A stretch of 64,000 nucleotides of DNA, taken from the NCBI GenBank assembly GCA_013388635.1, contig JACAEX010000020.1:5826-69825 (forward strand), given 5' to 3'. The notes under the pieces are model-generated. The model worked only from the letters and a program-made list of their open reading frames with translations, ran no database searches and was not told the DNA's origin. Shown one piece after another: positions 23,979 through 47,243 of this stretch; the first letter of the stretch is position 1, and every line of letters begins with the position of its first letter. Origin of the DNA: Syntrophaceae bacterium. GTDB lineage: Bacteria > Desulfobacterota > BSN033 > UBA1163. A program made the position numbers and the translations under genes.

Positions 23979-23981
23979 GAG

Positions 23982-27170: not shown

Positions 27171-27230
27171 GTCGTAATGTCAAAAAAGTTATGAAAAACT
27201 CTGTTAAAAGACAAAGAAAAACAAGCATGT

Positions 27231-27359
27231 CCCTCCCCCTTGAGGGGGGAGGAGAGGGTGGGGGTGAAAGAATGAGGGAGCATGACAAAGCAATTAATAA
27301 AAGTCAGCTGATATCGCAGGTTACCCCTCACCCTAGCCCTCTCCCACAAGGGGAGAGGG
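27231..27359 (+). terminator. Two GC-rich stem-loops (27231-27251; 27337-27359) between pilY1-1 and the downstream small gene; candidate terminator/attenuator or GC-rich palindromic repeat
   Basis: cctccccc/ttgag/gggggagg and ccctctccc/acaag/gggagaggg perfect stems; second followed by aataaatttt. Confidence 0.4.
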
Positions 27360-27404
27360 GGAATAAATTTTGACAATACGTTTTAAGTAAGAAGGAGGGA
27401 AGTC

Positions 27405-27773: not shown

Positions 27774-27804
27774 ATGGTGCGGTATAAGCCGGGCTCTCAA
27801 AGGG

Positions 27805-28722: not shown

Positions 28723-28775
28723 ATAAGGTTTAGTGTCTGTCATCTTAAGTCCGGTGTCGGAATTGAATTTCCATA

Positions 28776-28803
28776 TTGACAAAGATTTTTTAGCCGATAA
28801 AAT
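28776..28803 (+). promoter_or_regulatory. Sigma-70-like promoter TTGACA-N16-TAAAAT upstream of minor pilin cassette 2
   Basis: Consensus -35 and near-consensus -10, about 60 nt upstream of GTG 28867. Confidence 0.45.
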
Positions 28804-28866
28804 AGATTTAACCTCTTTAAGGTCGGTGCGGCCAGTATCCGTTTTTAGCGGACGGAGGTGAGATTC

Positions 28867-29313
28867 GTGAACAAAAAGGGAGTAACATTAATCGAGATGA
28901 TTGTGGTCATGGTGATCATTGGTCTGGGTGCGCTCCTGTTCGTTCCGAATATTTCCGGGTTCTTGCCCAGTTACCGCCTGAGAGGTGCGGCCCGGGACAT
29001 TGTCTCCACCATGAAAAATGCCCAGGTCAGAGCGGTTTCGACAGGTATGACTTACCGGGTCAGGTTTACACAAACCCCTCCAAGCTTCGTCCTTGAATAT
29101 TTTGACACGGGAAGTGGAAACTGGGTGGCTGAGGGGACAAGCCAGAGTCTTCCAACAGGGATTTCAATCGTTTCGATCAATTTTACAGGGGATAATGCAC
29201 AGTTTAACTCCAATATGACTGCTTCTGCTGGAAGTATTAGGTTGCAGAATAATCGTGGGACGCAGAAAGTAGTGAGTGTTGCTTCCTCGACCGGCAGGAT
29301 TCAGCTCCAGTAG
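28867..29313 (+). CDS. fimT: Type IV minor pilin, FimT/GspH-like (cassette 2)
   Basis: Leader MNKKG / VTLIEMIVVMVIIGLGALL from GTG 28867 with GGAGG 8 nt upstream. Confidence 0.6.
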   Translation: MNKKGVTLIEMIVVMVIIGLGALLFVPNISGFLPSYRLRGAARDIVSTMKNAQVRAVSTGMTYRVRFTQTPPSFVLEYFDTGSGNWVAEGTSQSLPTGISIVSINFTGDNAQFNSNMTASAGSIRLQNNRGTQKVVSVASSTGRIQLQ

Positions 29314-29682
29314 ATGATTCAGAGAAAGACAGGCTTTTCTTTGGTTGAGGTCCTGATTGGACTGATCTTCCTTGCCATCGGTCTTCTTGCCCTCGCTGGT
29401 TTGCAGATCACCTCCATCCGCGGTAATTCCTTCAGCCATCATTTGATGCAGGCCACCTACCAGGTTCAGGATCGCGTCGAAAGATTAAAAAATCTACCGC
29501 TTACCTCTCCTGAACTCCAGCCTGGAAGTCACAACCTCGAGCCCTTCACCCTTTCGGGTCTTGTCTTCAAACAGTCCTATACCGTCATTGAAGAAGCTGA
29601 TCTTAAGACGATCCATTACACGGTCGAATGGGACGACGGTGTTGGCCACAGGATCACCTTTTCGACGATCCGGTCGCAGTGA
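29314..29682 (+). CDS. pilV: Type IV minor pilin, PilV-like (cassette 2)
   Basis: MIQRKTG / FSLVEVLIGLIFLAIGLLALAGLQ. Confidence 0.65.
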   Translation: MIQRKTGFSLVEVLIGLIFLAIGLLALAGLQITSIRGNSFSHHLMQATYQVQDRVERLKNLPLTSPELQPGSHNLEPFTLSGLVFKQSYTVIEEADLKTIHYTVEWDDGVGHRITFSTIRSQ

Positions 29683-29687
29683 AAAGT

Positions 29688-30506
29688 ATGCAGATTATTA
29701 AGAAGAAAAACAGAGGGGTCACCCTGATTGAACTGATGATTGCCCTGGTGATGAGCAGCGTCCTCATCGCCGCTCTCTATGAAGTATTCATTCGTCACCA
29801 AAAGACCTATGTCCTTCAGGAACAGATCGTCGACACACAGCAGAGTGTGCGGATCGCCTTGAATCGCATGGTCAGTGAGATCAGAATGGCAGGGTTTGGG
29901 GGAGTGGAAAACGTCCTGAGTTTGGCCGGAGGGGTAAATGGCTTCACCCAGGTGATCACCCCGGGCCCGAAGAGAATCACAATCGTCGGAGGATTCAAGC
30001 AGATCCGGCGAGATAATGGAGAGCCGATTCTGGTCTCTTCGGTTTCAGGAAATCAGATTACGCTCAATTATGCCACAAACGAGTTTGATAGATTGGCACA
30101 CCGATTTATTTCGATCGGTGGCCTTGAAAGCAGTACAGTGCTGAAAAGGGATAGAAGGATTCTTACACTCAGCAACCCTCTCAAGTGGAATCACCCTGCT
30201 GGGACACCAGTATTTAAGATCCAGGCCATCACCTACACCACGGGCCTCAGCGGTCTTAGGATCATCCTTCAAAGGGATGAGAATACGGGAGGTGGCCCTC
30301 AGCCTGTGGCCGAGAATATAGAAGAGATTCAATTCGAATATTTCGATGCCAATGGAAACACGACCGCAGATCCTCCGAAGATTCGGATGGTTCGGGTGAC
30401 AGCTACTGCAAGAACCGATCGGCCTGATCCTTATCTCAAGATCGGGGATGGCTATCGGAGAAGGCAGATCGCGTCTCATATCTACATCAGAAATATGGGA
30501 TTATAG
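29688..30506 (+). CDS. pilW: Type IV minor pilin, PilW-like (cassette 2)
   Basis: MQIIKKKNRG / VTLIELMIALVMSSVLIAALYEVF; ATG 29688. Confidence 0.65.
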   Translation: MQIIKKKNRGVTLIELMIALVMSSVLIAALYEVFIRHQKTYVLQEQIVDTQQSVRIALNRMVSEIRMAGFGGVENVLSLAGGVNGFTQVITPGPKRITIVGGFKQIRRDNGEPILVSSVSGNQITLNYATNEFDRLAHRFISIGGLESSTVLKRDRRILTLSNPLKWNHPAGTPVFKIQAITYTTGLSGLRIILQRDENTGGGPQPVAENIEEIQFEYFDANGNTTADPPKIRMVRVTATARTDRPDPYLKIGDGYRRRQIASHIYIRNMGL

Positions 30507-30712
30507 GTCATGGTTACGAGACCCGTTTCATAACTTCTGATGTGGAGCATCGGAGATGAGGTGATGAGGAGAGGAATCTATTTCTCCCTATCCCCTCACC
30601 CCCTTATCTCCTTATTGATTATTGATTTTTTGCCGATACGGGCATCGTTACCCTGACCGGACGACGAGACCCTTATTTTCTGAGCAATTGAAAGATGGCA
30701 GGTTTCTGTTAT

Positions 30713-31159
30713 ATGGAAAGAAATATTTTAAAGAACAGAAAGGGGGTAGCGTTGATCATTGCCCTTCTGTTGCTACTTGCCCTGACGTTGATCGGAATCA
30801 GCTCGATCAATACGACGACGATTGAAACGGGTATCTCTGGAAACGATCGGGAGAAGGTCGATGCCTTTTATACGGCTGAGGCCGGGGTCCAGGTGGGAAT
30901 TCATCAAATTCCGGTTACATCCCCGATCCCAACGACCAAACTGAAGGAAAATTCCTACTATTGGAGCGGAACGGCAGATGACAGAGAAAACCCCAAGGCC
31001 TTTAAGTCCTTCGGAATTCACCAGATGCCCGGATTTGATTCCTCGTGGGCGTTTCGACGATATCAGATTAATGTGACAGGAGAATCCTTTAGATCGACAA
31101 GAGAGATAGAGGTTCAGGTGAGTTACGGCCCCTTTCGGGCGGATACGGATTACAACTGA
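30713..31159 (+). CDS. pilX: PilX-like minor pilin (cassette 2)
   Basis: MERNILKNRKGVALIIALLLLLALTLIGISSINTT PilX_N pattern; ATG 30713. Confidence 0.6.
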   Translation: MERNILKNRKGVALIIALLLLLALTLIGISSINTTTIETGISGNDREKVDAFYTAEAGVQVGIHQIPVTSPIPTTKLKENSYYWSGTADDRENPKAFKSFGIHQMPGFDSSWAFRRYQINVTGESFRSTREIEVQVSYGPFRADTDYN

Positions 31160-31190
31160 TTGGGCTTCTGGGTTTTAGAGGGAAGGGGAG

Positions 31191-31508
31191 ATGAGATATA
31201 GAGGAGGTTTATACATTGTTGTCTTTGCCATAGCTTTTCTTTTTCAAAACCAAACTTTTTCCCAGGTGAAGGTCGGGGAGACGGTTTCATTTACTGGGAT
31301 GATCGAGAGGGTCCAGGACGATCTCAAATTCATCGTCATCCATGAGATGAGGATTTTTATCACTACGGATACAAGGATAGTAGATGAGAACGGAGAGATG
31401 TTGAAGGTAGATGATCTGAGGCCGAAACTGAAAGTAGCCATTGAAGGGATTCGGAATCCAAATGGCTTCCTCGCAAAGAGGATTCTTCTTAAAAGCCCGA
31501 AGAAGTAA
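31191..31508 (+). CDS. Small secreted protein, paralog of 27405-27773; immediately upstream of pilY1 paralog 2
   Basis: Signal peptide; shared architecture (G.I.E.D.K.I.V.E...F......LAKKI.LL). Confidence 0.45.
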   Translation: MRYRGGLYIVVFAIAFLFQNQTFSQVKVGETVSFTGMIERVQDDLKFIVIHEMRIFITTDTRIVDENGEMLKVDDLRPKLKVAIEGIRNPNGFLAKRILLKSPKK

Positions 31509-34298
31509 GTGAAGATCAAGAAGCTTAACCCGGCGATACTCCTTATTTTTTTTCTCTCGATACCCCTCCATCATCTTCAGGCCGATGATACCGATCTCTT
31601 TATGACCAATGTGGAACCGGATGCGCTGATCCTTCTGGACAAATCCGGAAGCATGAATTTAGGCCCTGCAGGCTATCCTGTCAGTGACCCTAACAGAAAG
31701 ATCGATATTGCAAGAAAAGTCATTTTTGATCTTCTCGATCATAACGGGGATGGTCGGATCGACAATGCGGATGAAAAGAGTTTAAACGTGCGTCTGGGAT
31801 ATATGAGGTTCTGGAACTCAAACAGTAACGATGATGGTGAACCAAAAACAGGGGAGATCCAGATCTTATCAGCTTTGGGAAACTCGTACAGCAATATCTG
31901 GTCCAGCGTAAACCAGGAGCAGGAGCGTGATGGTCTGGGTGGTACGCCTTTAGCTGCCTCTCTATCAGAGGCCAGAACATACTTTACGCGGGACGTCAAT
32001 CCTTCGGATCCGGCCATCGATTGCAGGCAGAAGTTTCTGATCCTGATTACGGATGGGGAAGACACCTATGCCTGTGGCGGTGATGGGTCAGAGGGACAAG
32101 CGGATATGTTCAAAAGAAGAATCTTGACCATCCAAAGGGCCAAGGAGCTTTATGAGGCCGGAATCAAAGTCTTCGTTGTGGGATTGGGCCAAACCCTGTC
32201 AGAGCCTCTGAAAAGGACTTTAAACTGGACTGCAAGGTATGGAGGGACAGATAACCCTCTGGAGATGAACTCGGGAGACCCAGGTGCCTATGATGTGGCA
32301 AGATACAGCCCTGCCTGTTCAACCACGGATGCGAGTTCAGATCCAGCCAATTATCCCCTTTCTGGGTACGCCTTCTTAGCGTCGGATGCTTCCTATCTGA
32401 AAAAAGCAATAGAGGCTATTGCGAAGGAGGTTCGAGAAGGATCTTATTCTTTCACCGCTCCTTCGAGACCTACCGCTCAAATAGCTGACAGGGATGTCCT
32501 CTACCTCTCTTCCTTTACCCCCAACCGCACCCCCTTCTGGAAGGGAAATATCCGGGCATATCGCCTGGATGAAGATGGATTGTTTCCTGTGGATAAGGAT
32601 GGAAATCCTCTCAGATCGAGCCTGATCTGGGATGCATCTGAGAACCTCAAAGCGCTCTCGCCCGGTTCTCGAAAAATTTATACATATGTGAGTGGAAACC
32701 AGATACCTTTTGATTATGGACATTTAACCAATACCGATCTCGGTGTTTTCACAAATTGGGAAAGGCAAAGGCTGATTGACCATATCCGGGGCATCGATGC
32801 CTACGATGTGGACGGTGATGGGGATAGAAATGAAGCGAGAGAGTGGAGTCTCGGCGATATCTTTCATTCAAACCCCGTGATTGTGGGTGAACCCTCTCCC
32901 TTTTTTGAGGATCAGGGTTTTAGCGGGAAAGGGGGTTTTTATCAGTTGAGAAAGGATCGGACCAAGGTGGTCATTGCCGGCGCTAACGATGGGATGCTCC
33001 ATGCATTTGATGCAGCCACAGGAGATGAACAATGGGCTTTTATTCCAACCAGTCTGTTGAAGAATTTGAAACTGATGGCGTCTTCCCATACCTATTATGT
33101 CGATTCGACACCCAAAGTAGCTGATGTCTGGTTCTATAGCAGTCCTACAGATATGACGAAGAGTCCAGATGAATGGAGAACGGTTCTGATCTCAGGCCTG
33201 AGGAAGGGGGGAAAGGCCTACTTCGCTCTGGATATCACAGACACCTTAGACCCTAAGTATCTCTGGGAATTTCCGGCACCTTCGGACACAACGACTCTCG
33301 CAAAGGTCGGCCAGAGCTGGTCCGAGCCTGCCATCGGAAGGGTAAAGGTCGAGGTGGGAGACGGACTTTATGAGAGATGGGCAGCCTTCATCGGCGGAGG
33401 GTTTGACTACACGAACAGTACAGGAAGAGCTTTCTTTGTGATCGATATCAAATCGGGTGAGACTATTAAGGAGTTCTCTGGGCTGGAAGGCATGAATTAC
33501 GCATTTGCAGCTCCTCCAAAAGCGGTTGATACCAATTCGGACGGATATGTAGACAGGGTCTACGTGGGCGATCTGGGTGGCCAGATGTGGGTGTTCGATC
33601 TCTCATTTGATGAGGCGAAAAGAGAGAGCAACAGTCAGTGGACAGGAAAGAGACTTTTCGTAGCCCCGATTTCAGAGACTGAGGTCCATCGGATCTACTG
33701 TGAGCCTGCTGTTGCATTTGATCGATCTGGAACTCCCTGGGTCTATTTCGGGACTGGGGATAGAGAACGGCCCAACGATCTCTCAAATCCTAACGAGAGG
33801 TTCTATGCGGTGAAAGACAGTGGCATAGGAAGCTACCCGCGAAAGGAGACCGATCTCTCAGAGGTTACGTCTTCAAATACCTTCAAACCGGCGTCGAAAG
33901 AGGGCTGGTATCTCCGCTTGGAGCGATCAGCTCAAAATTCAGAGAAGGTGCTAACAAAACCGGTCGTCTTCAATAAACTTCTCTACTTTACTACGTATTT
34001 ATATACTGCAACCGAAAATCCCTGCCTTTTTTTAGGGGAGGGAAAACTCTACGTGCTTGAATCCCTCTCTGGAGGGGGAGCCCTAAGCTTTGATGATGCG
34101 ACTGTCTTAGAAGACACTCCATCCGAGCGGTCAAAAAAGATCGGCAGGGGAATCCCTTCTGCCCCTGCGGTCAGAGTGGATTTAAAAGGTAAGGCATGGG
34201 TGACCGTCGGAACGACCGAGGGTCAGGTTTTCTCAACCCCAATATTCTCTCCAGCCAGATCGAAGCAGATCCTTTATTGGCGAGAAGTCATTCCGTAA
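31509..34298 (+). CDS. pilY1: PilY1-like tip adhesin (paralog 2, 929 aa): signal peptide, vWA, PilY1 propeller
   Basis: GTG start; MIDAS ILLDKSGSMN; DTNSDGYVDRVYVGDLGGQMWVFDL Ca-loop. Confidence 0.8.
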   Translation: MKIKKLNPAILLIFFLSIPLHHLQADDTDLFMTNVEPDALILLDKSGSMNLGPAGYPVSDPNRKIDIARKVIFDLLDHNGDGRIDNADEKSLNVRLGYMRFWNSNSNDDGEPKTGEIQILSALGNSYSNIWSSVNQEQERDGLGGTPLAASLSEARTYFTRDVNPSDPAIDCRQKFLILITDGEDTYACGGDGSEGQADMFKRRILTIQRAKELYEAGIKVFVVGLGQTLSEPLKRTLNWTARYGGTDNPLEMNSGDPGAYDVARYSPACSTTDASSDPANYPLSGYAFLASDASYLKKAIEAIAKEVREGSYSFTAPSRPTAQIADRDVLYLSSFTPNRTPFWKGNIRAYRLDEDGLFPVDKDGNPLRSSLIWDASENLKALSPGSRKIYTYVSGNQIPFDYGHLTNTDLGVFTNWERQRLIDHIRGIDAYDVDGDGDRNEAREWSLGDIFHSNPVIVGEPSPFFEDQGFSGKGGFYQLRKDRTKVVIAGANDGMLHAFDAATGDEQWAFIPTSLLKNLKLMASSHTYYVDSTPKVADVWFYSSPTDMTKSPDEWRTVLISGLRKGGKAYFALDITDTLDPKYLWEFPAPSDTTTLAKVGQSWSEPAIGRVKVEVGDGLYERWAAFIGGGFDYTNSTGRAFFVIDIKSGETIKEFSGLEGMNYAFAAPPKAVDTNSDGYVDRVYVGDLGGQMWVFDLSFDEAKRESNSQWTGKRLFVAPISETEVHRIYCEPAVAFDRSGTPWVYFGTGDRERPNDLSNPNERFYAVKDSGIGSYPRKETDLSEVTSSNTFKPASKEGWYLRLERSAQNSEKVLTKPVVFNKLLYFTTYLYTATENPCLFLGEGKLYVLESLSGGGALSFDDATVLEDTPSERSKKIGRGIPSAPAVRVDLKGKAWVTVGTTEGQVFSTPIFSPARSKQILYWREVIP

Positions 34299-34397: not shown

Positions 34398-35369
34398 TTA
34401 GGAGTGATCTGTCTTCGTCTGGAGTCTCTTAATCCTCTCCTGGGCCTTGGAGAAAGAATGATCTAACTTCAAGACGGTGGTAAAGGTGCTCAAGGCCTCG
34501 GAGACCATTCCCTTGGCTTCATAAGCTAACCCTAAAGAGAAGTGGACGCGGGCCAATTTCTGATTTGACAATCCTGGCACCTTGGAGGCCAGCGTGTAGT
34601 ATTTGATCGATTGATCGTAATCGCCCTTCTCCATGAAGCAGTTCCCGAGCATGATATAGCAATCAAACCTTATCGGGCCACATGAAGCGGCCTGTTCAAA
34701 CTCAGAGATGGCATAATCGTAGAGCTCCATCTCTTTGTAGGCAATCCCCAAATGGTAATGCATTTGAGAATCCTTATCGGCATCTGCTGCAGACGACTCG
34801 CTCTCATAGGTCACCTCGCGTGGGATCTGTGGGGCAGGGGGAGGAGTGGGTTTCTGCTGGACCACCTTCTTTTCTAACGGAGGGAGGGATTCAGGGACAC
34901 GGGGCTGTGGTGGTGGAACAACCACCTTAGGAGGTTCTTTTGTTTCCTTCTGGCGGGCCTCGATATCCTCGAGTGCATGTCGGGCTTCCGTGTCGCCAGG
35001 TTTAATCTCCAGAACATTCTGATAATAGCTCTTTGCGCTTCCGATAAGCCCTTCTTTTAAATATAGTTTTGCTATCTTGTGAAAGGCTTCGACAAATTTT
35101 GGGTCGATCGAAAGGACTCTCTTATAGACAGAGATCGCCCGGAAATTCAAATCCTCTTCGGCATAGAGCTCGGCAAGCTTCAGATATTCTCCGATCGCCT
35201 TCTCCTTTTCTCCTTCTTTCAGGTAGAGATCCCCTAACTTCAGGTATAATCGCTTATCCTTAGGGGTAACCTCAATGAGTTTAAGGTACTCCTGGATTGC
35301 CTTCTTGGGCTGACCTTTGAGGACATACTTTTGGGCGAGGTCCAGTATCTTTTCTTTGTCGATAGCCAA
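34398..35369 (-). CDS. TPR-repeat protein with central Pro-rich linker (divergent from MglA operon)
   Basis: Multiple TPR-like helices (AIQEYLKLIEVTPKDKRLYLKLGDLYLKEG...), PPPQPRVPESLPPLEKK linker. Confidence 0.65.
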   Translation of the reverse strand: MAIDKEKILDLAQKYVLKGQPKKAIQEYLKLIEVTPKDKRLYLKLGDLYLKEGEKEKAIGEYLKLAELYAEEDLNFRAISVYKRVLSIDPKFVEAFHKIAKLYLKEGLIGSAKSYYQNVLEIKPGDTEARHALEDIEARQKETKEPPKVVVPPPQPRVPESLPPLEKKVVQQKPTPPPAPQIPREVTYESESSAADADKDSQMHYHLGIAYKEMELYDYAISEFEQAASCGPIRFDCYIMLGNCFMEKGDYDQSIKYYTLASKVPGLSNQKLARVHFSLGLAYEAKGMVSEALSTFTTVLKLDHSFSKAQERIKRLQTKTDHS

Positions 35370-35846
35370 AAGATTACCCTCAGAAAGGGAAATCTTAATC
35401 CGATCTGAGCGATTCCGTATCCTCGGAGGGGAAATCGCTCAGTTCAAGCTTAAAGAAACCCTAAATTGAAAAGAAGGAGAAAGAGAAGCCATCCAAAAAG
35501 ATGTTTTCGTTCACGTATGAACATTGGCCAGAAAGAGGAATAGGGTGAATAGCAACCCGGTTCTTGACCGGAAGATCTCTCAGCTTATTACAATTTACCC
35601 AATGGTCAAGAAAAAGTCAAGATTGACATTCTGCGCAAAGCAGGGCGGATCAAAAGAAGCCAGATCTAACCCTTTTTCTCGGGCAAATCGTTTTCATCTC
35701 TTAGGTTCAAAATGACGGAAATTTTTTGCCAATGGTCAAATATTGGCCGCCACCACCATGTCTCTCAGGATTCTTAAAGATTGGCCTTGGAACAGAACTA
35801 TGCGAACCTCTTGATGAAAATGGTGAGAGGAATTTTTTGCAAAAAT

Positions 35847-35861
35847 TGGCACTTATTTTGC
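35847..35861 (+). promoter_or_regulatory. Sigma-54 promoter TGGCAC-N5-TTGC upstream of REC-DUF4388/mglB/mglA operon
   Basis: Perfect consensus TGGCACttattTTGCt, 62 nt upstream of ATG 35924. Confidence 0.65.
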
Positions 35862-35923
35862 TTTTCCTTAGAGAAATCAAGTAGTAACAGGCAATCACAA
35901 CCCGACATCCTCGAGATCTCCCT

Positions 35924-36613
35924 ATGCCGAAGAATTTAAAGAAGGTTCTGATAGTTGACGATGAAGAGACCTTGACATGGAGCATGGCCAAAAGCCTCTC
36001 AAAAGATAAAGATAAATATGAGGTGATCATTGCCAACAATGGCCAAGAGGCCTTGACTCTCTTGGAACAGAACAGGGTTGATTTAGTGATCACTGACATA
36101 CGGATGCCAGACATTAATGGTCTGGATCTGCTTGTTAGAATAAGGAAGGAATACCCCCAAACCAAGGTCATCATCATGACGGCTTACGGCTCTTCCGACA
36201 TCCAGAAAGAGGCTACCCAGAGGGGATCTCTCTACTACGTGGAAAAGCCCTTTGAGATTTCAGACATAAGGAAGATCATCATCGATCTCATCGGACATAA
36301 AAAGGGATTCCGTGGAAAGGTATTTGGCCTCCAGCTGACCGATGTGATTCAGATGAACTGTCTGGGCAGACTCACCACAGCACTCATCATCACGCGGGAC
36401 GGCGAGAAGGGGATCATCTATTTGAACGAAGGGGAGATCGTCCATGCGGAATGCGGAGAACAGAAGGGAGCAGAGGCCTTCTATAACATCCTGAGCTGGC
36501 AGGAAGGGGAGTTCGTCTCAAATATTGGCTTCGCCGCCCCTGTGCAAACAATCTACCAGAGCTGGGAACATCTCCTGATCGAAGCGATGCGGAGGAATGA
36601 CGAAAAGGCATGA
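35924..36613 (+). CDS. Response regulator: REC domain plus C-terminal DUF4388 (PATAN-type) domain
   Basis: REC (VLIVDDEE...DLVITDIRMPDINGLDL...KVIIMTAYG); C-terminal KVFGLQLTDVIQMNCLGRLTTALIITRDGEKGIIYLNEGEIV. Confidence 0.7.
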   Translation: MPKNLKKVLIVDDEETLTWSMAKSLSKDKDKYEVIIANNGQEALTLLEQNRVDLVITDIRMPDINGLDLLVRIRKEYPQTKVIIMTAYGSSDIQKEATQRGSLYYVEKPFEISDIRKIIIDLIGHKKGFRGKVFGLQLTDVIQMNCLGRLTTALIITRDGEKGIIYLNEGEIVHAECGEQKGAEAFYNILSWQEGEFVSNIGFAAPVQTIYQSWEHLLIEAMRRNDEKA

Positions 36614-36654
36614 GCGGTTTGCATCTCGGCTCTGCGGTCAGGAAATCATAGAAG

Positions 36655-37074
36655 ATGGATATCATCATTACCAGAAAGGATCTCGAAAAGATAAACCTCT
36701 GCCTGGATAAGGTGGTCTCCTCCTCGCATGCGCACTCCGTGTTGCTCATCGACCGGTCGGGACAACTCATTGCGCACCATGGAAACACACCGGGGATCGA
36801 TATCCTATCCCTTTCTGCCCTGACCGCCGCCAATTTCGGAGCAACGGCAGAGATCGCCAGGATCCTGGGTGAGGAAGAGTTTACGCTCTTATTTCATAAG
36901 GGGAAGAACGAGAACGTCTATTTTTCAGCAATCGGAGAGCACGTTATCTTGGTGACCCTATTTGATGACAATACCTCATTAGGGTTGATCCGGCTGCAGA
37001 TCAATAAGATCATTGATGAGCTCTCGAGCATCCTCTCATCCATCTTTGAAGAGAAAGCGGTTCCGGCGAATTGA
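36655..37074 (+). CDS. mglB: MglB (Roadblock/LC7 GTPase-activating protein for MglA)
   Basis: Strong resemblance to recalled M. xanthus MglB incl. LFDDNTSLGLIRLQINKIIDEL. Confidence 0.8.
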   Translation: MDIIITRKDLEKINLCLDKVVSSSHAHSVLLIDRSGQLIAHHGNTPGIDILSLSALTAANFGATAEIARILGEEEFTLLFHKGKNENVYFSAIGEHVILVTLFDDNTSLGLIRLQINKIIDELSSILSSIFEEKAVPAN

Positions 37075-37104
37075 TCGACTTCGATTTCCTGGCGTGGAAA
37101 GTGT

Positions 37105-37731
37105 ATGCCTTTTATAAACTTCAGCAAAGACGAGATTCAATGCAAGATCGTCTACTATGGACCAGGATTTTGCGGAAAGACCACGAATCTTCAGTATATT
37201 TTTAGTCAGACGAGCGAAGAGATCAAAGGAAAGATGGTCTCCATCGATACAAAGGGGGATCGGACACTCTTTTTTGACTTTCTCTCCCTTAGCCTCGGAA
37301 AGATCCGGGGGTTCGATATCCGAGTTCAGCTCTACACCGTTCCAGGACAGGTCCACTATGATGCTACCAGAAAGCTGGTATTGAAGGGCGTCGATGGGGT
37401 TGTTTTCGTGGGAGATTCGTTGAAGGTTCAAAGGAAGAAGAATATTGAAAGTCTGATCAATCTGGCAAAGAATCTTGCCGAGAAGGGAATTAGCATCCGA
37501 TCCATTCCCCTTGTGATCCAATACAACAAACGCGATTTGGACGGGACCGATTCGGAGATCCTCCCTATTGAGGTGATGGAGAAGGATCTCAATTCGATGC
37601 TCAAAGTCCCCTCTTTTTCTGCCAGCGCCCTCAAGGGGGATGGCGTTTTCGAGACCCTCCGGGAGATCAGCAAGTTAGTGGTCAAAGATGTGAGCCGAAA
37701 GATCATGGTTCTCGACAAGCAGGTCCGGTGA
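37105..37731 (+). CDS. mglA: MglA (Ras-like polarity GTPase)
   Basis: MPFINFSKDEIQCKIVYYGPGFCGKTTNLQYIF ... LYTVPGQVHYDATRKL ... IQYNKRDL, near-collinear with recalled M. xanthus MglA. Confidence 0.85.
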   Translation: MPFINFSKDEIQCKIVYYGPGFCGKTTNLQYIFSQTSEEIKGKMVSIDTKGDRTLFFDFLSLSLGKIRGFDIRVQLYTVPGQVHYDATRKLVLKGVDGVVFVGDSLKVQRKKNIESLINLAKNLAEKGISIRSIPLVIQYNKRDLDGTDSEILPIEVMEKDLNSMLKVPSFSASALKGDGVFETLREISKLVVKDVSRKIMVLDKQVR

Positions 37732-37749
37732 TGACCAAGGACATCGAGC

Positions 37750-38892
37750 ATGGAAAAGATAATCGGCGAGGATGAGATCAGGGGACTCGAAGAAGAGATC
37801 GACTCTGCTGTGGAACGGCTTTTCGTCGATAGAAAGGCTGACCGAACCGAGAGCCCATCGGTGAAGCCTCACCCCGCTCCTCCTCCGCAAAGGGCGAAGA
37901 AGGCCGATAGTGAGATCCCTGTGCATCCCCCGTCAGGACCCGCTTCGCCCTTGCAATCTTTTGACAAGATGGAGACGAGACTTCTTTCATTGGAGTGGGA
38001 GATAACAGGAGAGGACCTCGAAAAAACAAAAGAGGAAATCCAGGGCTTGCGAGAGGCCTTTAGAGAGAGACCGGATATCATCTCAGTTCTAAATTTGATG
38101 GCGAAGGTCATCATTCATATGACGCAAAATGAAGAAGGAATTCAACCTTCCCAGATCAAATTCCTGATGGATTCAAAAGAGACGATAAAGCTGCTGATGA
38201 AGGAAGACGCAGGGGCTGAATTCTCCGTTTACAAGCAGCTGGCCCTCAGCGGAATTGAGGCCAGGTATTTAGCTCTCGAAGGGATCAAACAGGCCCAAAC
38301 CAAACCACCGGCCTCAGGTCCAGGTGAGTTGACTCAGAGAGAAGCCTCGAAACCCCGGGACAAACAGTTTGAGCGGATGTTTAATAAAATGGATCTCCTT
38401 TTTGAGAAGATGTCAGATCTCCTGAAGAGATTTGAAGGCCATCTATCCACGTCTGAGGAGAAGAGCAGAGCACTGTCCAAACCCGAGGTTCGAAGGGGCC
38501 CTGTGCCAGTGGACATCACGCTCTTCAAAGCAGGAGAGAGACTGTTTGGAATTGAGAGCCAAAAGGTCTTCAAATTATTCAAGGTCCCGGATAGTTTTGA
38601 CGAGAGATATTCGGGTCAGCATAAGATACGGATGAAGGACTTTGAGATCAGGATGGTTGATTTGAAAGGCATCCTGTCGATCCAGAGCCGAGGTCGAAAA
38701 GGGGAGAGGCAATTGCTCACTGTAAAAGAAGACGGTGAGTACAAAGGACTGGTCGTCGATCAGATGGTGAAGAGGCTGACAACCGAAGTCGATACCGAAG
38801 GGGATTACGGTGAATATTTCTCAGGGGTGGTCCATTGGACCTACCAGGAAGTACCGCTGGAAATTCCTGTCTTAAATTTAAAAAGGATATAA
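37750..38892 (+). CDS. Pro-rich/coiled-coil protein with C-terminal CheW-like domain
   Basis: C-terminal about 130 aa (DITLFKAGERLFGIESQKVFKLFKVP...GLVVDQMVKRLTTEVDTEGDYGEYFSGV...VLNLKRI) matches CheW-fold pattern. Confidence 0.55.
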   Translation: MEKIIGEDEIRGLEEEIDSAVERLFVDRKADRTESPSVKPHPAPPPQRAKKADSEIPVHPPSGPASPLQSFDKMETRLLSLEWEITGEDLEKTKEEIQGLREAFRERPDIISVLNLMAKVIIHMTQNEEGIQPSQIKFLMDSKETIKLLMKEDAGAEFSVYKQLALSGIEARYLALEGIKQAQTKPPASGPGELTQREASKPRDKQFERMFNKMDLLFEKMSDLLKRFEGHLSTSEEKSRALSKPEVRRGPVPVDITLFKAGERLFGIESQKVFKLFKVPDSFDERYSGQHKIRMKDFEIRMVDLKGILSIQSRGRKGERQLLTVKEDGEYKGLVVDQMVKRLTTEVDTEGDYGEYFSGVVHWTYQEVPLEIPVLNLKRI

Positions 38893-38907
38893 GGACCGGA
38901 TCAGGCC

Positions 38908-40068
38908 ATGGAGCAGGGAATTTCAATTCGAGCCATCGGTGGCGGTAGGGTAAAAAAAGAGGAGACGATCCAGGCGCTGGCTCAGGAGTTAGAGGATGTC
39001 AAAAATTTCATGGATAGCGTCATCCAGAGCATCGGAAGCGGAATCATCATCACAGGGATGAACGATACCATTACCTACATCAACCGGGCAGGGGAGAGGC
39101 TTTCAGGGTATTCAAGGGAGGACGTGATCAACAAACCCTTCAGCATCTTTGCCCTGAGGGAAAAGCAGAGCGATATCCACGCCTTCTTCGATAATCCTGA
39201 TGATCATACGACGAGAAGGGAAGGGTGGATGAGGAGGAAGGACCATACCGAATTTCCCGTCGGATTTAGCATGAACGATCATGTCAATGTCAAGGGAGAG
39301 AGGATAGGCAAGATCGTGATCTTCCGCGATCTGACCAATGTGTATAAAATCCAGGAGGAAATATTGAGGATGGACCGCCTGGTGTCTCTGGGAAAACTGG
39401 CTTCGGGCATTGCGCATGAGCTTCGAAATCCCCTTGCCGGGATTAAGACGACCGCTCAGGCGCTTAGCGAGGAGATGCCGAAGGACGATCCCAAAAGAGA
39501 ATATCTAAATCGAATTACCAGGGAGATCGACCGGTTAAACGATCTCTTGAAGACCTTCTTCTCCTTTGCCAAGCCACAGGAATTGAATCTGGTTTACTGC
39601 CACATCCGAGAGGTGATCAATGAGATCATCCCATTTCTTTTCAAGGAGATTGCTGATCAGGGGATCCGGTTTAATGAAAGCTATGACCCAGAGCTCCCTA
39701 AGATCAAAGTTGATAAGGCCCAGATGCACCAGGCCTTTCTAAATCTCTTTTTGAATGCCATCCAGGCGATGCCCCGCGGAGGGGAGCTCAAGATTGAGGT
39801 GACGCCAACCACTCTGCAATCCTCTGATGGACTCAAACAGAACTTCGTTAAGATCATCATCTCCGATACAGGAAAAGGTATTCCTCCACATATCATTCAG
39901 AAAATTTTCGATCCGTTTTTTACAACGAAACCGAAAGGGATTGGGCTGGGCCTTTCGATCACCTATCAGATCATTAAGAAACACGGGGGGACGATTAAGG
40001 TCGAAAGTGAATGGGGCAAGGGAACTTCCTTCATCATCAATTTGCCGGAGGCGTTGGAGAACCCATGA
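38908..40068 (+). CDS. Cytoplasmic PAS-domain sensor histidine kinase
   Basis: PAS (ITGMNDTITYINRAGERLSGYSRED), H-box ASGIAHELRNPLAGI, G-boxes DTGKGI/GIGLGLS. Confidence 0.8.
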   Translation: MEQGISIRAIGGGRVKKEETIQALAQELEDVKNFMDSVIQSIGSGIIITGMNDTITYINRAGERLSGYSREDVINKPFSIFALREKQSDIHAFFDNPDDHTTRREGWMRRKDHTEFPVGFSMNDHVNVKGERIGKIVIFRDLTNVYKIQEEILRMDRLVSLGKLASGIAHELRNPLAGIKTTAQALSEEMPKDDPKREYLNRITREIDRLNDLLKTFFSFAKPQELNLVYCHIREVINEIIPFLFKEIADQGIRFNESYDPELPKIKVDKAQMHQAFLNLFLNAIQAMPRGGELKIEVTPTTLQSSDGLKQNFVKIIISDTGKGIPPHIIQKIFDPFFTTKPKGIGLGLSITYQIIKKHGGTIKVESEWGKGTSFIINLPEALENP

Positions 40069-41441
40069 GACCTTCGATTCTTATTGTAGATGATGATGAG
40101 GTCCTGCGAGAGACCCTTTTTGATGTCTTTCGGAAGAAGGGTTACGAGGTTTTTTCTGCGGGAACGGGAGACGAAACCCTCACAGTCATAAGAAGGTATC
40201 TTGTCGATCTAATTCTTCTGGATATGCGACTCCCGGATGTGGACGGATTGGATATCTTGAAGAAGATTAAGGAGTTGGATACCGAGATTTTGGTCATTAT
40301 GATGACCGCCTACTCCGATGTCCAGAGCGCGGTGAAGGCGATGAAGTCAGGAGCTTACGACTACATCAACAAGCCCTTCGAATTAGAGGAATTGCAGCTG
40401 CTGGTTGAAAAGGGTCTGGAGACGAAGAGCCTGATCAACGAGGTGCGGAGACTCCATCGGCAACATCGGGTGGAGCACAGGGACAGCCATATTTACGGGG
40501 TGAGCCCGCAGATTCAATACGTGAGAGAAATGATCGAAATGATCAGCAAAACCAATAAGACCTCTGTCCTGATTCAGGGAGAGAGCGGAACGGGCAAAGA
40601 GCTGGCGGCCAATGCCATCCATTTCAGCAGCAAACGGAGCGCCAAACCTCTGATGAAGATTAATTGCAGCGCCATTCCCGATTCGTTATTGGAGTCGGAA
40701 CTCTTTGGATATGAGAAAGGTGCTTTTACCGACGCAAAGACCACGAAGAAGGGGCTTTTTGAACTGGCAGATGGAGGGACGGTCTTCCTGGACGAGATTG
40801 GAGAGATGAAGCCCTTTTTGCAGTCAAAGATACTAAGAGTTCTTGAAAATCAGACATTTATGAGAGTGGGCGGGGAAAGGGAGATCAAGGTCGATGTCCG
40901 AGCGATTGCAGCGACCAATCGGGACCTGGAGCAGATGGTCAGGGATGGGCTCTTTCGAAAGGATTTATACTACAGGTTAAAGGTGATGGTGGTTGAGATG
41001 CCACCTCTCCGTGAAAGAGTGGAGGATATTCTCCTTCTTGCGAAGTTGTTCGTCGAGGAGAACAATAAGGAATACAATAAGGATGTCAAAGGATTTTCCG
41101 AGGAGGCAAAGAAATTGCTGGTTCAGTACTCATGGCCAGGGAATGTAAGAGAATTGAAAAATGTGATTGAAAGAGCGATGATTTTGACTGATGGGGAGTA
41201 CATCACACCCAAACAGCTCCCGTTTGAATTAAAGCAAACCGAACCTAACTGTGCGGTGAAGGTGATTTCTGATCTCTCTGATCCAGTGCTTGGGATTTCC
41301 CTGGAGGATATGGAGAGAAGTCATATCTCAAATGTTCTCAAGAGGCTGGAATGGAATAAGTCGAAGGCATCGAAGGCCTTGGGGATTTCTCGAGCGACTT
41401 TGAGGGCAAAGATCAAAAGATACAGCCTTGATGCAATTTAG
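40065..41441 (+). CDS. Sigma-54-dependent response regulator (NtrC family)
   Basis: ATG 40065 overlaps kinase stop (ATGA); REC, GESGTGKEL, GAFTDA, C-terminal HTH. Confidence 0.85.
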   Translation: MRPSILIVDDDEVLRETLFDVFRKKGYEVFSAGTGDETLTVIRRYLVDLILLDMRLPDVDGLDILKKIKELDTEILVIMMTAYSDVQSAVKAMKSGAYDYINKPFELEELQLLVEKGLETKSLINEVRRLHRQHRVEHRDSHIYGVSPQIQYVREMIEMISKTNKTSVLIQGESGTGKELAANAIHFSSKRSAKPLMKINCSAIPDSLLESELFGYEKGAFTDAKTTKKGLFELADGGTVFLDEIGEMKPFLQSKILRVLENQTFMRVGGEREIKVDVRAIAATNRDLEQMVRDGLFRKDLYYRLKVMVVEMPPLRERVEDILLLAKLFVEENNKEYNKDVKGFSEEAKKLLVQYSWPGNVRELKNVIERAMILTDGEYITPKQLPFELKQTEPNCAVKVISDLSDPVLGISLEDMERSHISNVLKRLEWNKSKASKALGISRATLRAKIKRYSLDAI

Positions 41442-41579: not shown

Positions 41580-42638
41580 ATGCTCTGGGGTAGAAAAAAG
41601 GACGTGATTGGTCTGGATATTGGGTCAAGTTCAATCAAACTTGTCGAACTGGCCCAGGGCAAGAGCGGGTATAGGTTACAAAATCTGGGAATCTCCCCCC
41701 TGCCGCCGGAGGCCATTGTTGACGGGGCTTTGATGGACTCGGTCACCATCATCGACACCATTCGGGAGCTGGTCAACACGACGAAAGTGAAGACCAAGGA
41801 TGTGGTGACATCTGTATCAGGCCACTCCGTCATCGTCAAAAAGATTACATTGCCCTTCATGACAGAGGCTGAATTGGAGGAATCGATCAAGTGGGAAGCA
41901 GAAAGGTACATTCCGTTTGATATCAACGACGTCAACATCGATTTCCAGATATTCGGTTCCAATGCAGAAAATCCCGAGATGATGGACGTCGTTCTAGTGG
42001 CTGCGAAAAAGGATATCATCAACGATTATGTCTCGGTGATTATGGAGGCCGGGCTCAACCCGGTGATCATCGATGTCGATGTTTTTGCGCTGGAGAATAT
42101 GTTGGCGATCAATTACGAGATCGCCAAAGACGAAGTGGTCGCCATTGCGAATGTCGGTGCGAGCACCACGAACATCAATATCCTCAAAAACAATGTCTCA
42201 GGTTTTACAAGGGACATCTTCAAAGGAGGGAATCAAATCACAGAAGATATCCAGAGGCAACTCCATGTGGACCACCAAGAGGCAGAAGAGATCAAGGTGG
42301 GCAGCAAGATGGATGTCGCCTCCCGAACGATCGTTCAGAATCTATTGAAGAAGGGCTCCGAATCATTGGCTGTCGAAATCCGAAACTCACTCGACTTCTA
42401 TCAATCGTCGACCACCTATGAAAAGATCAGCAAGTTACACCTGAGCGGGGGCGGATCGAGGATTAAGGATTTCGATCTCATCCTTCAGGAGGAAATCGGG
42501 ATTCCCGTTGAGGTCGTGGATCCTTTTAGAAAGATAGAGTGCAACGAGAAGAAGTTCGATCTCGAGTATTTAAAGGAGATCGGACCGGTCATGGCCGTGG
42601 GAGTCGGCCTCGCTTCAAGAAAGGTTGGAGATCGATGA
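41580..42638 (+). CDS. pilM: Type IV pilus assembly ATPase-fold protein PilM
   Basis: IGLDIGSSSIKLVEL actin-like fold N-terminus. Confidence 0.85.
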   Translation: MLWGRKKDVIGLDIGSSSIKLVELAQGKSGYRLQNLGISPLPPEAIVDGALMDSVTIIDTIRELVNTTKVKTKDVVTSVSGHSVIVKKITLPFMTEAELEESIKWEAERYIPFDINDVNIDFQIFGSNAENPEMMDVVLVAAKKDIINDYVSVIMEAGLNPVIIDVDVFALENMLAINYEIAKDEVVAIANVGASTTNINILKNNVSGFTRDIFKGGNQITEDIQRQLHVDHQEAEEIKVGSKMDVASRTIVQNLLKKGSESLAVEIRNSLDFYQSSTTYEKISKLHLSGGGSRIKDFDLILQEEIGIPVEVVDPFRKIECNEKKFDLEYLKEIGPVMAVGVGLASRKVGDR

Positions 42639-43171
42639 TAAAGATCAATCTGCTTGCGATACGCAAGGAAAAGAAGAAGATCAAGATAAGAAAGGAGTTC
42701 CTCGTTCTCATTCCGGCTCTCGTCCTTGAGTTTGCCTTTATCGGCTTTATGGAATGGAAAATGGACAAAGAAAAGGCTGAGCTTTTGGAGAGTATATCGA
42801 AAGCTAAAAAAGAGAACGACTATTATAAGTCTTTGATGACGGAGGTCAAAAAGGCCAAGGAGTCGCAGAAGATCCTTCAGGACAAGCTAAACGTCATCAA
42901 TTCGTTGAGAAAGCAAAAGGCCGTGCCTGCCAGGGTATTGGACGAGATCAGCATGAACAAGCCGGATAAAATCCAACTGGATTCTCTGAAGAAGGAGGGA
43001 GCCAAATTGGGGATTGAAGGACTCGCTTTGGATGACGAAACCGTGGCCAATTTTATGACCAACCTTCGGAGATCAAAGGTCTTTAAATCGGTTGATCTGA
43101 TCGTCACCGAGCAGGTCGAGCAGAGCAAATTCAAGTTGAAGAAGTTCATCCTTTCATGCGAAATTTCATAG
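42635..43171 (+). CDS. pilN: PilN
   Basis: MIKINLLAIRKEKKK N-terminus plus single TM; ATG 42635 overlaps pilM stop. Confidence 0.75.
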   Translation: MIKINLLAIRKEKKKIKIRKEFLVLIPALVLEFAFIGFMEWKMDKEKAELLESISKAKKENDYYKSLMTEVKKAKESQKILQDKLNVINSLRKQKAVPARVLDEISMNKPDKIQLDSLKKEGAKLGIEGLALDDETVANFMTNLRRSKVFKSVDLIVTEQVEQSKFKLKKFILSCEIS

Positions 43172-43193
43172 ATCTCACTCAGGAGGAGACCCA

Positions 43194-43835
43194 ATGGCAC
43201 TTAAGGCAGATGCCATCTTTAAGCTTTCAACACCGAAGAAGGTCCTCCTGCTGGTCGCCCTCTTAGGGATGATCGCAGGTCTCTACCTCCATTTCTCCTT
43301 CAGTGGTCGGCGGGAGGAGATCAAGCTCTTGAAGGCGGACCTCGATAAGTTGATCAAGGAGCTGAACGGGAACAAAACGATCACCCGGGATCTTCAAAAA
43401 TTCAAGGAACAGCTTGCGAAGATGGACGAGGAACTGGCAAGGGCGGTCACCCAGCTCCCCAATGAAAAAGAGATTCCGGAGATACTGAAAAACATTGCCA
43501 GCCTCGGGAAGGAGTCGAATCTTGAATTTACCCTCTTCAGGCCCAAGGCCGAAGTCCCCCAACAGTTCTATGCGAAGGTTCCGATCGAGCTCACGGCATT
43601 AGGAAGTTATCATAATACTGGCATCTTCTTCGACAGGGTGAGCAAGCTTCCAAGAATTATTAATGTGATCGACTTCAATATGACCAGAGTAAAAGATGCG
43701 AAGGCAAAGGCGGGCGGTGAGATCTTAGTAAGGACCTCGTGTCTGGTCAACACCTACCGTTTCATAGAGAAGAAGAGCGTGGAGAAAGAAAAGAAAATTG
43801 AGCAGAAGAAAGGCGAGGAGAAGAAGCATGAGTAA
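43194..43835 (+). CDS. pilO: PilO
   Basis: Single TM plus coiled coil plus conserved PilO core (LPRIINVIDFNM). Confidence 0.7.
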   Translation: MALKADAIFKLSTPKKVLLLVALLGMIAGLYLHFSFSGRREEIKLLKADLDKLIKELNGNKTITRDLQKFKEQLAKMDEELARAVTQLPNEKEIPEILKNIASLGKESNLEFTLFRPKAEVPQQFYAKVPIELTALGSYHNTGIFFDRVSKLPRIINVIDFNMTRVKDAKAKAGGEILVRTSCLVNTYRFIEKKSVEKEKKIEQKKGEEKKHE

Positions 43836-44409
43836 AAATAGGTTCCTCTCAGGAAAGGAAAAGGGTTCTCAAGAGAATAGGACTCTCTACTCTCTGCTGT
43901 CTCTATGGGCCGTCTTTCTTTTCATGGTGGCCAGCTGCGGAGGAAGTTCTCCTCCTCCTGTTCAAAAGGCAAAACCTCTCGCGGTGGAGAAGAAGATGGC
44001 GGAAAGTGCAAAGGCACCTGAGAAGAAGGATCAGGAGGAGAAGAAGGAGCCCGAGTACGTTTACAACCCGGCAGGAAAACCGGATCCCTTTAAGCCATTT
44101 ATCCAATTGGAATCTGTAAAAGAGGTTGCCAAGACCGCTCCGCTTACCCCCTTGCAAAAATACGATGTCAGTCAATTGAAGTTGGTGGCTATTATTACGT
44201 CAGCGGAAGGGGGAATCGCTATGGTCGAAGATGCCACTGGCAAAGGATACTCTTTGCGAAAGGGGACGGGGATCGGGAAACATGACGGGAAGGTGAAGAA
44301 GATCCTTAAGGACAGGGTGATCATTGAAGAAGTGTATGAGGATACGCTTGGCCAGAAAAAAGTTCATGAGATTTCATTGTTTCTTCATAAAGAGGGAGGA
44401 GAGTCATGA
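43828..44409 (+). CDS. pilP: PilP lipoprotein
   Basis: Lipobox MVASC; C-terminal beta domain KGYSLRKGTGIGKHDGKVKKI; start 43828 or 43798. Confidence 0.65.
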   Translation: MSKNRFLSGKEKGSQENRTLYSLLSLWAVFLFMVASCGGSSPPPVQKAKPLAVEKKMAESAKAPEKKDQEEKKEPEYVYNPAGKPDPFKPFIQLESVKEVAKTAPLTPLQKYDVSQLKLVAIITSAEGGIAMVEDATGKGYSLRKGTGIGKHDGKVKKILKDRVIIEEVYEDTLGQKKVHEISLFLHKEGGES

Positions 44410-47243
44410 GATCATATCGCCTGATTAAAACCATCTCTTTTCTCACCGGGTTGCTCTTGTTGAGTGGTTGCGCTGTAAGCAGACCTTCCATAGAGGCCCC
44501 AAGCCCAGGCACTCCAGATATCGCAACAAAGGCAGGAAGAGTTTCTGCCATCGAGGGGATAACTTTTACAGAGGAGGAGAATTTTACAAGGATTAAGATC
44601 TCGGGTTCTGAAACCCTCGAGGCCCCTTTCTATAAACTCTTGACCGACCCCCTCAGACTTATCATCGATCTTCCAAATGTCGACTTGAAACAGCTGAGGG
44701 ACCCGATCAAGATTGAAAATGGGACGGTCGGTGAGGTCACAGCCACTCAATTGGATGACAAGGGAAGGATCGAGATCGGTCTCCTTCAGATGACGAACTA
44801 CAATATCTCAAAGGAAGAGAAGGATCTGATCATCGATATCGAAAAAATCAAGGCGATTGCTGAGGCGAAGGAAGGAGAAAAGCCAGAGGAACCGGTGAAA
44901 GAGAAGGAAGCTGAGATCCCTCCTCCGGAGATGAAGAAAGAGGAGGCCGTGCAGGTTCAACCTGTTGAGACACCTCCAGTCCAAGAGGTGAGCAAGAAGG
45001 CGAAGAATATCCTCACCGTCTCACTGGATCAGAAGAAGGACTCCATTACGTTCCAGATCATCGCTGACGGAAGCATTGGCAACTACAATGCGTTCAAACT
45101 GGATTCCCCTTCGAGGTTGGTCCTTGACATCTGGGAGGTGGGCAGCCGCTATCCGAAAGATTTGATCAAAATTCAAAATCGGTTGATCAAACAGGTCCGA
45201 ATTGGACGCCACCCGGATAAGATGAGGTTCGTCTTCGATTCTCTCAAACCCCAACTCCCCCCTTACCAGATCAATCGGATGGATGATAAGCTGATGGTCT
45301 CATTCGGGAAGGTTCCGCAGCCATCAGAGCCCCAAATTTTAGTGCCCGAAAAGCCCAGCGTAGGGGTCCCGGCACCGAAGGCTCGGGTGAATGCCCCGAT
45401 CGAATTTAAACAGATGGATAATAAGTCAAGGATCGTCGTATCGCTGACAGAGGAGCCAAAATTTGAATCTCAGTTGATTTCAAAAGATGTGATCGCGGTC
45501 GATATCAAGAATGCATTCGTTCCCAGGCGCCTCCAGAGGGAATTGGATACGAGCGCATTCGACAGCGCTGTCAAGTCGGTCGAGCTCAAAAACATCAGGT
45601 CAGGAGAGGCAAGCGATGTCAGAATCTTGATCAGATTAAAAGAAGAGGTGCCGTTTGAAACCGCTCAGGAAGGGAAGTCGCTGCTTATTGACATCGAGAG
45701 GCCTAAGAAGGCCGAGGCCAAGATAGGGGCTCCCTCAGAGATCAAAAGGGAGGAAGTGTCGCAGGAGTCGAGGAAAGAGGAGCCCAAAGAAGAAGCGGTG
45801 AAGAAAGAAGGAGAGGTCAAGAAGGAGGTTAAGGAAGAGGTTAAGAAAGAGGAGGCCAAGCCTTCTCCTGAGGGAAAAAAGACCGAGAAGGGCACCCCCA
45901 GGGCTGAGGAGAAGCCTCTTTCAGTAATTCCGCCGGTGAAAAAAGCGGAAGAGGAGAAGAAGGTGATCGAAGAAGCCCCTTCGGAAAAGGTCTATACCGG
46001 CAGGAGGGTATCCCTCGATTTCAAAGATGCCGATATTAAGAATATCCTCCGGCTGATCGCAGAGGTGAGCAACTTCAATATCATCACAGGGGATGATGTT
46101 TCAGGAAAGATCACGATGCGATTGGTCGATGTCCCCTGGGATCAGGCTCTGGATGTGATCTTGCAGGCGAGATCTCTCGGAATGAAAAAGGTCGGAAATG
46201 TGATCCGGATCGCGCCCCTCGATACCCTGAAGAAGGAGATTCAGACAGAGCTCGAGGCAAGAAGGGCGAAGGAGAAGCTGGAGGATCTGATGACCGAGCT
46301 CATCCCGGTCAACTATGCCACGGCCAAGGAGATCCTGCCCCAGGTCAAGAGCATCCTGAGTGAGCGAGGGGACATCAAGGTCGATGATCGGACGAATATC
46401 TTAATCGTCAAGGATATTGCTCGAAATATCGCTGCCGCAAAGAGCCTGATCAAATCGCTGGATACGAAGACGCCCCAGGTTCTGATCGAGGCCAGGATCG
46501 TGGAGGCCACGCTGACGTTTCAGAGGGACCTTGGTATTTCGTGGGGATTTTTGGCAGAGAAGGGAACGGACAAGAGGAGGACCTACTCGGTCGGGGGAGG
46601 GACAGCAGGGGAGAGCACCCTGAGAGCGCCCTCGGGAACTGCTTCGGTTGACACTCGAAAATTCGTCGATCTACCTACGAGCACGGCAGCAGGTCTCCTT
46701 GAATTTCTTTTCACCTCCGATTATGGGCTAAAGAATCTCGATGTTGCCATATCGGCTTATGAGAGCAAGGGAGATGTTAAGGTGATCTCGAGCCCAAAGA
46801 TCGCTACACTCGATAACAAAGAGGCATCGGTCGAGCAGGGGCTGAGGATTCCATATACCAAACTGACCACAGAGGGGACTGTAACAGAGGAGTTTATCGA
46901 GGCCAATCTGAAATTGATAGTAACCCCTCATGTGACCAACGACGGCCACATCAAAATGAGTATCAAAGTCAAAAAGGATGAACCGAGCAAGGCATTTGTA
47001 AGCAAGAGTGATACCCCGAGCATCGATAAGAAAGAGGCGATCACCGAGGTGCTGGTCAAAGATAACGGAGTGGTGGCGATCGCTGGTATCTATACGATCA
47101 AAAACGATCGGGGAACCACGGGCGTCCCATTTCTAAGTAAGATTCCCGTGCTGGGCTGGCTCTTTAAGAAGGAATCGAAGACGAATGACACGAAGGATTT
47201 ATTGATTTTCATCTCACCCAAGATCTTTAAGGATCAGGTTTAA
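44406..47243 (+). CDS. pilQ: PilQ secretin lipoprotein with three N-terminal AMIN domains, a Lys/Glu-rich low-complexity linker, N0/N1 and secretin domains
   Basis: Lipobox LLSGC; C-terminal secretin signature TTGVPFLSKIPVLGWLFK. Confidence 0.85.
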   Translation: MRSYRLIKTISFLTGLLLLSGCAVSRPSIEAPSPGTPDIATKAGRVSAIEGITFTEEENFTRIKISGSETLEAPFYKLLTDPLRLIIDLPNVDLKQLRDPIKIENGTVGEVTATQLDDKGRIEIGLLQMTNYNISKEEKDLIIDIEKIKAIAEAKEGEKPEEPVKEKEAEIPPPEMKKEEAVQVQPVETPPVQEVSKKAKNILTVSLDQKKDSITFQIIADGSIGNYNAFKLDSPSRLVLDIWEVGSRYPKDLIKIQNRLIKQVRIGRHPDKMRFVFDSLKPQLPPYQINRMDDKLMVSFGKVPQPSEPQILVPEKPSVGVPAPKARVNAPIEFKQMDNKSRIVVSLTEEPKFESQLISKDVIAVDIKNAFVPRRLQRELDTSAFDSAVKSVELKNIRSGEASDVRILIRLKEEVPFETAQEGKSLLIDIERPKKAEAKIGAPSEIKREEVSQESRKEEPKEEAVKKEGEVKKEVKEEVKKEEAKPSPEGKKTEKGTPRAEEKPLSVIPPVKKAEEEKKVIEEAPSEKVYTGRRVSLDFKDADIKNILRLIAEVSNFNIITGDDVSGKITMRLVDVPWDQALDVILQARSLGMKKVGNVIRIAPLDTLKKEIQTELEARRAKEKLEDLMTELIPVNYATAKEILPQVKSILSERGDIKVDDRTNILIVKDIARNIAAAKSLIKSLDTKTPQVLIEARIVEATLTFQRDLGISWGFLAEKGTDKRRTYSVGGGTAGESTLRAPSGTASVDTRKFVDLPTSTAAGLLEFLFTSDYGLKNLDVAISAYESKGDVKVISSPKIATLDNKEASVEQGLRIPYTKLTTEGTVTEEFIEANLKLIVTPHVTNDGHIKMSIKVKKDEPSKAFVSKSDTPSIDKKEAITEVLVKDNGVVAIAGIYTIKNDRGTTGVPFLSKIPVLGWLFKKESKTNDTKDLLIFISPKIFKDQV

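Follow-up and report, generated by a model that had tools for sequence, protein, structure and literature searches.

We analysed a 64,000-nt stretch of DNA, here called the window, from Syntrophaceae bacterium GCA_013388635.1 (contig JACAEX010000020.1, positions 5,826–69,825 of the forward strand) and confirmed, at the level of sequence, a predicted sigma-54-driven MglA/MglB polarity-switch operon inside a type IV pilus cluster. We consider it probable (roughly 0.6) that the locus forms one self-contained regulatory operon controlling the site and timing of type IVa pilus formation, a Desulfobacterota counterpart of the Myxococcus MglA/MglB/SgmX network encoded beside its machine.

The locus comprises a reverse-strand gene for a tetratricopeptide repeat (TPR) protein and, divergent from it, genes for a REC-PATAN regulator, MglB, MglA, a scaffold protein at first described as CheW-like, a histidine kinase (HK) and an NtrC-type activator, followed by pilMNOPQ. 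The seven genes and the sigma-54 promoter were found at the positions given by the sequence-only reading, and the ORF coordinates agreed. The six operon genes are co-oriented and tightly packed, with gaps of 15–41 nt and a kinase/activator overlap of 4 nt; the gap before pilM is 138 nt, AT-rich and free of −24/−12 matches. Pfam identified the flanks as a pilin gene with two minor-pilin/PilX/PilY1 cassettes (22386–34298, + strand; N_methyl, PilW, PilX_N, T4P_PilY1) and pilM-pilN-pilO-pilP-pilQ (41580–47243, +; PilM_2 at 1e-80, PilN, PilO, PilP, Secretin/AMIN), in agreement with the proposed placement of the unit between the minor-pilin/PilY1 cassettes and pilMNOPQ. The claim that CheA is missing also held; neither CheA nor an MCP turned up among the window's annotated ORFs or in the flanks of 33 loci. 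RomR, RomX, RomY and Frz genes were likewise not found nearby.

The mglB gene (36655–37074, +) encodes a 139-aa Roadblock/LC7 protein (Robl_LC7, PF03259, 2.6e-14), a predicted GAP of MglA. Its closest solved homologue is Myxococcus xanthus MglB (6h5b_B, 1.8e-30 over residues 3–134; 6izw_B, 2e-30), and Thermus MglB matched at 1e-13. The NCBIfam MglB model gave 1.7e-20 and 73.7 bits, below an equivalog cut-off of 200 that was built on Thermus. The gene adjoins mglA, ending 30 nt upstream of it. MglA (37105–37731, +; 208 aa), a Ras-like polarity GTPase, resembles M. xanthus MglA (6hjh/5ymx) over its full length (1.2e-69, residues 1–197; about 62% identity as read from the alignment) and T. thermophilus MglA at 2.3e-60. 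Group-1 MglA proteins were recognized by a GxxxxGKT P-loop, a switch I Arg finger, a T-x-x-G-Q G3 motif in which Thr replaces the Ras Asp, and NKxD. The corresponding motifs, aligned with M. xanthus, are GPGFCGKT, DRTLFFDF (Arg finger), TVPGQ and NKRD, with the P-loop, Arg finger and TVPGQ common to both proteins. Judged by these motifs, the protein is a group-1 MglA in which no catalytic motif is missing, and it is 89–95% identical across 22 loci.

SgmX is an MglA effector that activates pili, and its TPR12–14 bind MglA. The divergent gene (34398–35369, −) encodes a 323-aa “mini-SgmX”, which matched many Pfam TPR families and comprises N-terminal TPRs, a Pro-rich linker (~145–195) and a C-terminal TPR triad (TPRs 197–320). 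Residues 3–129 aligned with positions 1–129 of the NCBIfam SgmX model NF052243 (E=3e-39; next family, 1e-23), that is, with the start of the pilus-activating domain. In module-linked TPR proteins of distant loci, SgmX was again the in-register top match (positions 15–182, 6e-29; positions 17–194, 1e-35), with the next TPR family at only 1e-13. The protein does not have the full-length SgmX architecture: it has 323 aa, ~6–7 repeats and 135 bits, against ~1060 aa, 14 TPRs and a cut-off of 1800 bits. A TPR partner had been proposed; the gene is indeed divergent from the operon, and its product is homologous specifically, and in register, to the N-terminal, pilus-activating region of SgmX rather than a generic TPR protein. 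Of the 22 close loci, 18 carry the gene, always divergently oriented; the contigs of the other four end before it. In M. xanthus, MglA-GTP recruits SgmX, TPR1–8 of the SgmX N-terminus activate pili, and the FrzS receiver docks SgmX (PMC9811614). The genes are near the pil cluster in both organisms, but here all components lie in one predicted sigma-54 operon/divergon within the pilus locus. The receiver-domain protein encoded here could play the docking role of FrzS; unlike FrzS, it is predicted to be phosphorylatable and carries PATAN in place of the coiled coil.

This regulator (35924–36613, +; 229 aa) combines a receiver (Response_reg, 8e-29; residues 8–119) with a PATAN domain (DUF4388, PF14332, 4.5e-20; 72.3 bits against a cut-off of 25; residues 131–228); Pfam and PDB comparisons thus bore out the DUF4388 assignment along with those of Roadblock and MglA. 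As read from the sequence, the acidic pocket, phospho-Asp, Thr and Lys of the receiver are all intact. Its best matches are NtrC/AtoC-type receivers, not CheY, and it is ~40% identical to the receivers of both NtrC-type activators in the window. The whole protein is 81–93% identical across related loci. A strict PatA-type regulator, with an N-terminal PATAN and a C-terminal REC, was ruled out; REC precedes PATAN, and the protein is therefore a PATAN-containing regulator. The PatA-type proteins PixE, PixG and LsiR of cyanobacteria likewise join PATAN/DUF4388 to a receiver in a pathway steering type IV pili, but in the reverse order; here the PATAN is short (~100 aa), the receiver is NtrC-type-like rather than CheY-type, and the gene is coupled to mglBA, not to a Tax/Pix chemosensory operon. 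In these regulators PATAN is the output domain, and its binding to PilB1 and PilC is known from Synechocystis alone (bioRxiv 10.1101/2021.06.11.447907).

The gene after mglA (37750–38892, +) encodes a 380-aa protein. Its structure model predicts an N-terminal helix (7–28), a Pro-rich linker, a CheA-P1/HPt-like five-helix bundle (67–175), a long helix (203–240) and a CheA-P5/CheW-like domain (254–375), the bundle and this last domain being linked by the long helix alone. The earlier CheW assignment stood at the level of family and fold (PF01584), and the domain also fits CheA P5; in the close clade it is degraded below the Pfam threshold. A single-domain CheW adaptor encoded with CheA and an MCP was rejected, the protein having 380 aa, two extra modules and no accompanying CheA or MCP. 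The bundle carries LEWEI and KFLxDSKE motifs but no conserved His of the kind that accepts phosphate in CheA P1, and the protein gave no HisKA, H-kinase_dim or HATPase_c matches that would mark P3 or P4. Alignment to CheA with hhalign found only P5, the likeness to P1 being structural only. From the model, the protein seems better described as a CheA-like, kinase-less scaffold with P1-like and P5-like parts. Compared with CheA (P1-P2-P3-P4-P5), it is without P2, P3, P4, the ATPase and the conserved bundle histidine; compared with CheA and CheW, it has the extra N-terminal helix and Pro-rich linker and is encoded after mglA, with MCP and CheA not nearby. It evolves faster than any other protein of the locus (39–57% identity, against 89–95% for MglA). 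In 10/10 distant contexts with upstream sequence, the gene directly 3′ of mglA encodes the scaffold's N-terminal module, regardless of what forms the C-terminal part; among these proteins are ones of 646 aa and 1319 aa without a CheW domain. Such a scaffold is not known in Myxococcus, and no description of a P1-P5 partner was found in the literature searched.

Upstream of the REC-PATAN gene lies a predicted sigma-54-dependent −24/−12 promoter, TGGCACTTATTTTGCT (35847–35862, +). The window has two exact TGGCAC-N5-TTGC matches, one of them the core of this promoter, TGGCACTTATTTTGC (35847–35861). The form TTGG[C/T]A[C/T]-N5-TTGCT is kept in 21/21 related loci with upstream sequence, 57–88 nt before the ATG, so the −24 GG and −12 GC, their spacing and conservation among relatives are all found together with an activator gene. 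Sigma-54-like sites also occur at 22387 and 27068, in the pilin/PilY1 cassette region, but the only conserved one is that upstream of REC-PATAN. The window holds three EBP genes and no rpoN; two other NtrC-type activators encoded there could use the promoter. Alignment of 22 upstream regions revealed a palindrome, TGGTCAA-N3-TTGACCA (35733–35749), a candidate enhancer (UAS) ~130 nt upstream of the predicted sigma-54 start. Allowing up to two mismatches, it occurs in 19/21 loci, 166–196 nt before the ATG, and just two further matches turned up in 356 kb; its 3′ half is degenerate in the present genome. An upstream copy of the CCAATGGTCAA half-site (35599–35609, +) is a candidate distal activator site, and both exact occurrences of this motif in the 64 kb fall in the TPR/REC-PATAN intergenic region. 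In most relatives the palindrome overlaps a TTGACC-17-TATAAT sigma-70-like promoter, and it could be merely the −35 region of such a promoter.

The kinase (38908–40068, +) is a cytoplasmic PAS-HisKA-HATPase protein by Pfam (NCBIfam AtoS-like, 3e-93, below cut-off). Its gene starts 15 nt after the scaffold gene, and its stop overlaps the activator start. The activator (40065–41441, +; REC-AAA+-HTH_8, Sigma54_activat 4e-68) has an ORF opening at 40011 and a likely start at 40065 (ATGA overlap with the kinase stop); homologues align from MRPSILIVDD, and the GAFTDA loop is conserved in 18 loci. The two genes are directly upstream of and co-oriented with pilMNOPQ, as pilS2 and pilR2 are within the pil cluster of M. 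xanthus (PMC6060248), where both are required for pilus-dependent motility (PMC6060248, PMC6211767). The likeness to this HK and NtrC-type pair is one of position; here the pair is in an operon with REC-PATAN, mglBA and the scaffold gene behind a predicted sigma-54 promoter. The claimed sigma-54 two-component pair is thus present, and that it is dedicated to the module is only plausible, because it occupies the PilS2/PilR2 position.

Gene order from the TPR gene through pilMNOPQ was identical in every close locus with a long enough contig among 22 species-level genomes, all uncultured Syntrophaceae/Thermodesulfobacteriota MAGs. A core of PATAN, mglB, mglA and scaffold genes is kept in far more distant lineages, where the scaffold is only ~20–27% identical; the synteny expected of the unit is thereby upheld. 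This distant core is joined to pilMNOPQ in L026, L030 and L031, to the HK/NtrC pair in L024–L026, L028 and L029, and to an SgmX-N-like TPR protein in L023, L028 and L029. PATAN genes are known neighbours of mglA/mglB: Wuichet and Sogaard-Andersen 2015, citing Makarova 2006, describe variable neighbourhoods of group-1 MglA with mglB and a PATAN-domain gene, as here (PMC4316618), and the text consulted does not report the scaffold family, an SgmX-like TPR protein, the sigma-54 pair or the pilMNOPQ link. The architecture had been put forward as undescribed; this applies to the full seven-gene plus pilMNOPQ arrangement and the P1-P5 partner within the literature searched, but not to the PATAN-Mgl linkage.

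The locus could instead be two abutting independent units, a polarity module (REC-PATAN, mglB, mglA, scaffold) and PilS2/PilR2 orthologues whose targets are pilus structural genes (pilMNOPQ or others) and which are neither dedicated to nor regulators of the polarity genes. M. xanthus pilS2-pilR2 adjoin pilMNOPQ with no mglBA there (PMC6060248; PMC6211767), and L030 and L031 keep mglA, the scaffold gene and pilMNOPQ without an NtrC gene, so the pair is not obligatory to the module. We regard this division as unlikely, since the scaffold–kinase gap is 15 nt with no convincing terminator, the sole conserved sigma-54 promoter precedes REC-PATAN rather than pilM, and L028 keeps the HK/NtrC pair beside its PATAN-Mgl-scaffold-TPR module though pilMNOPQ does not follow. 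In that locus a sigma-54-like site with palindromes lies between the pair and the PATAN gene; L029 likewise has such sites just 3′ of its NtrC gene. It is improbable, too, that the 380-aa protein acts as a functional coupling protein in chemotaxis, with its CheW/P5-like domain sitting in a Frz- or Pil-Chp-like array encoded elsewhere and REC-PATAN phosphorylated by a CheA; the operon would therefore be the output branch of a chemosensory pathway. The window and the examined flanks (up to 20 kb) yielded no CheA, MCP, CheR or CheB, the best matches of the receiver are not CheY, and the CheW domain is sub-threshold here, in the least conserved protein of the locus, and wholly absent from related MglA-adjacent proteins.

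The pili themselves may serve something other than polar motility, with MglA as an on/off assembly switch, not a polarity determinant; in a non-motile syntroph it might, for example, set how many adhesive, conductive or DNA-uptake pili there are or how active they are. The carriers are anaerobic Syntrophaceae-type organisms known from MAGs alone, and Bdellovibrio MglA, RomR and a TPR protein govern pilus formation and prey invasion, not reversals (as cited in PMC4316618). We hold this as a tentative, somewhat doubtful alternative; MglB, a spatial GAP, fits a polarity role. It differs in cell biology only, the molecular inferences being identical, and sequence does not separate the two.

For the favoured reading, a self-contained operon governing pilus placement and timing, we infer the kinase–REC pairings, the activator–palindrome pairing and all protein–protein contacts as follows. 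The PAS kinase would phosphorylate the NtrC-type activator, which would bind the palindrome at about −130 and fire the sigma-54 promoter, which would amount to positive autoregulation; in relatives, activator at the palindrome may occlude the overlapping sigma-70 promoter, as at glnAp1/p2. With its conserved N-helix and HPt-like bundle the scaffold may bind MglA (or MglB), and its CheW/P5-like domain may target or couple it, whether to a chemoreceptor array encoded at another locus or to a different partner. REC-PATAN, its receiver being NtrC-like, probably receives its phosphate from an orthodox kinase, perhaps that of the operon itself; it may contact the PilB/PilC motor via PATAN, like cyanobacterial PatA-type regulators, and its receiver may dock the TPR protein, as FrzS does for SgmX. 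MglB GAP activity would keep MglA-GTP from one pole, and MglA-GTP would bind the small TPR protein, whose SgmX-like N-terminal part would stimulate the pilus extension machinery at the MglA-GTP pole.

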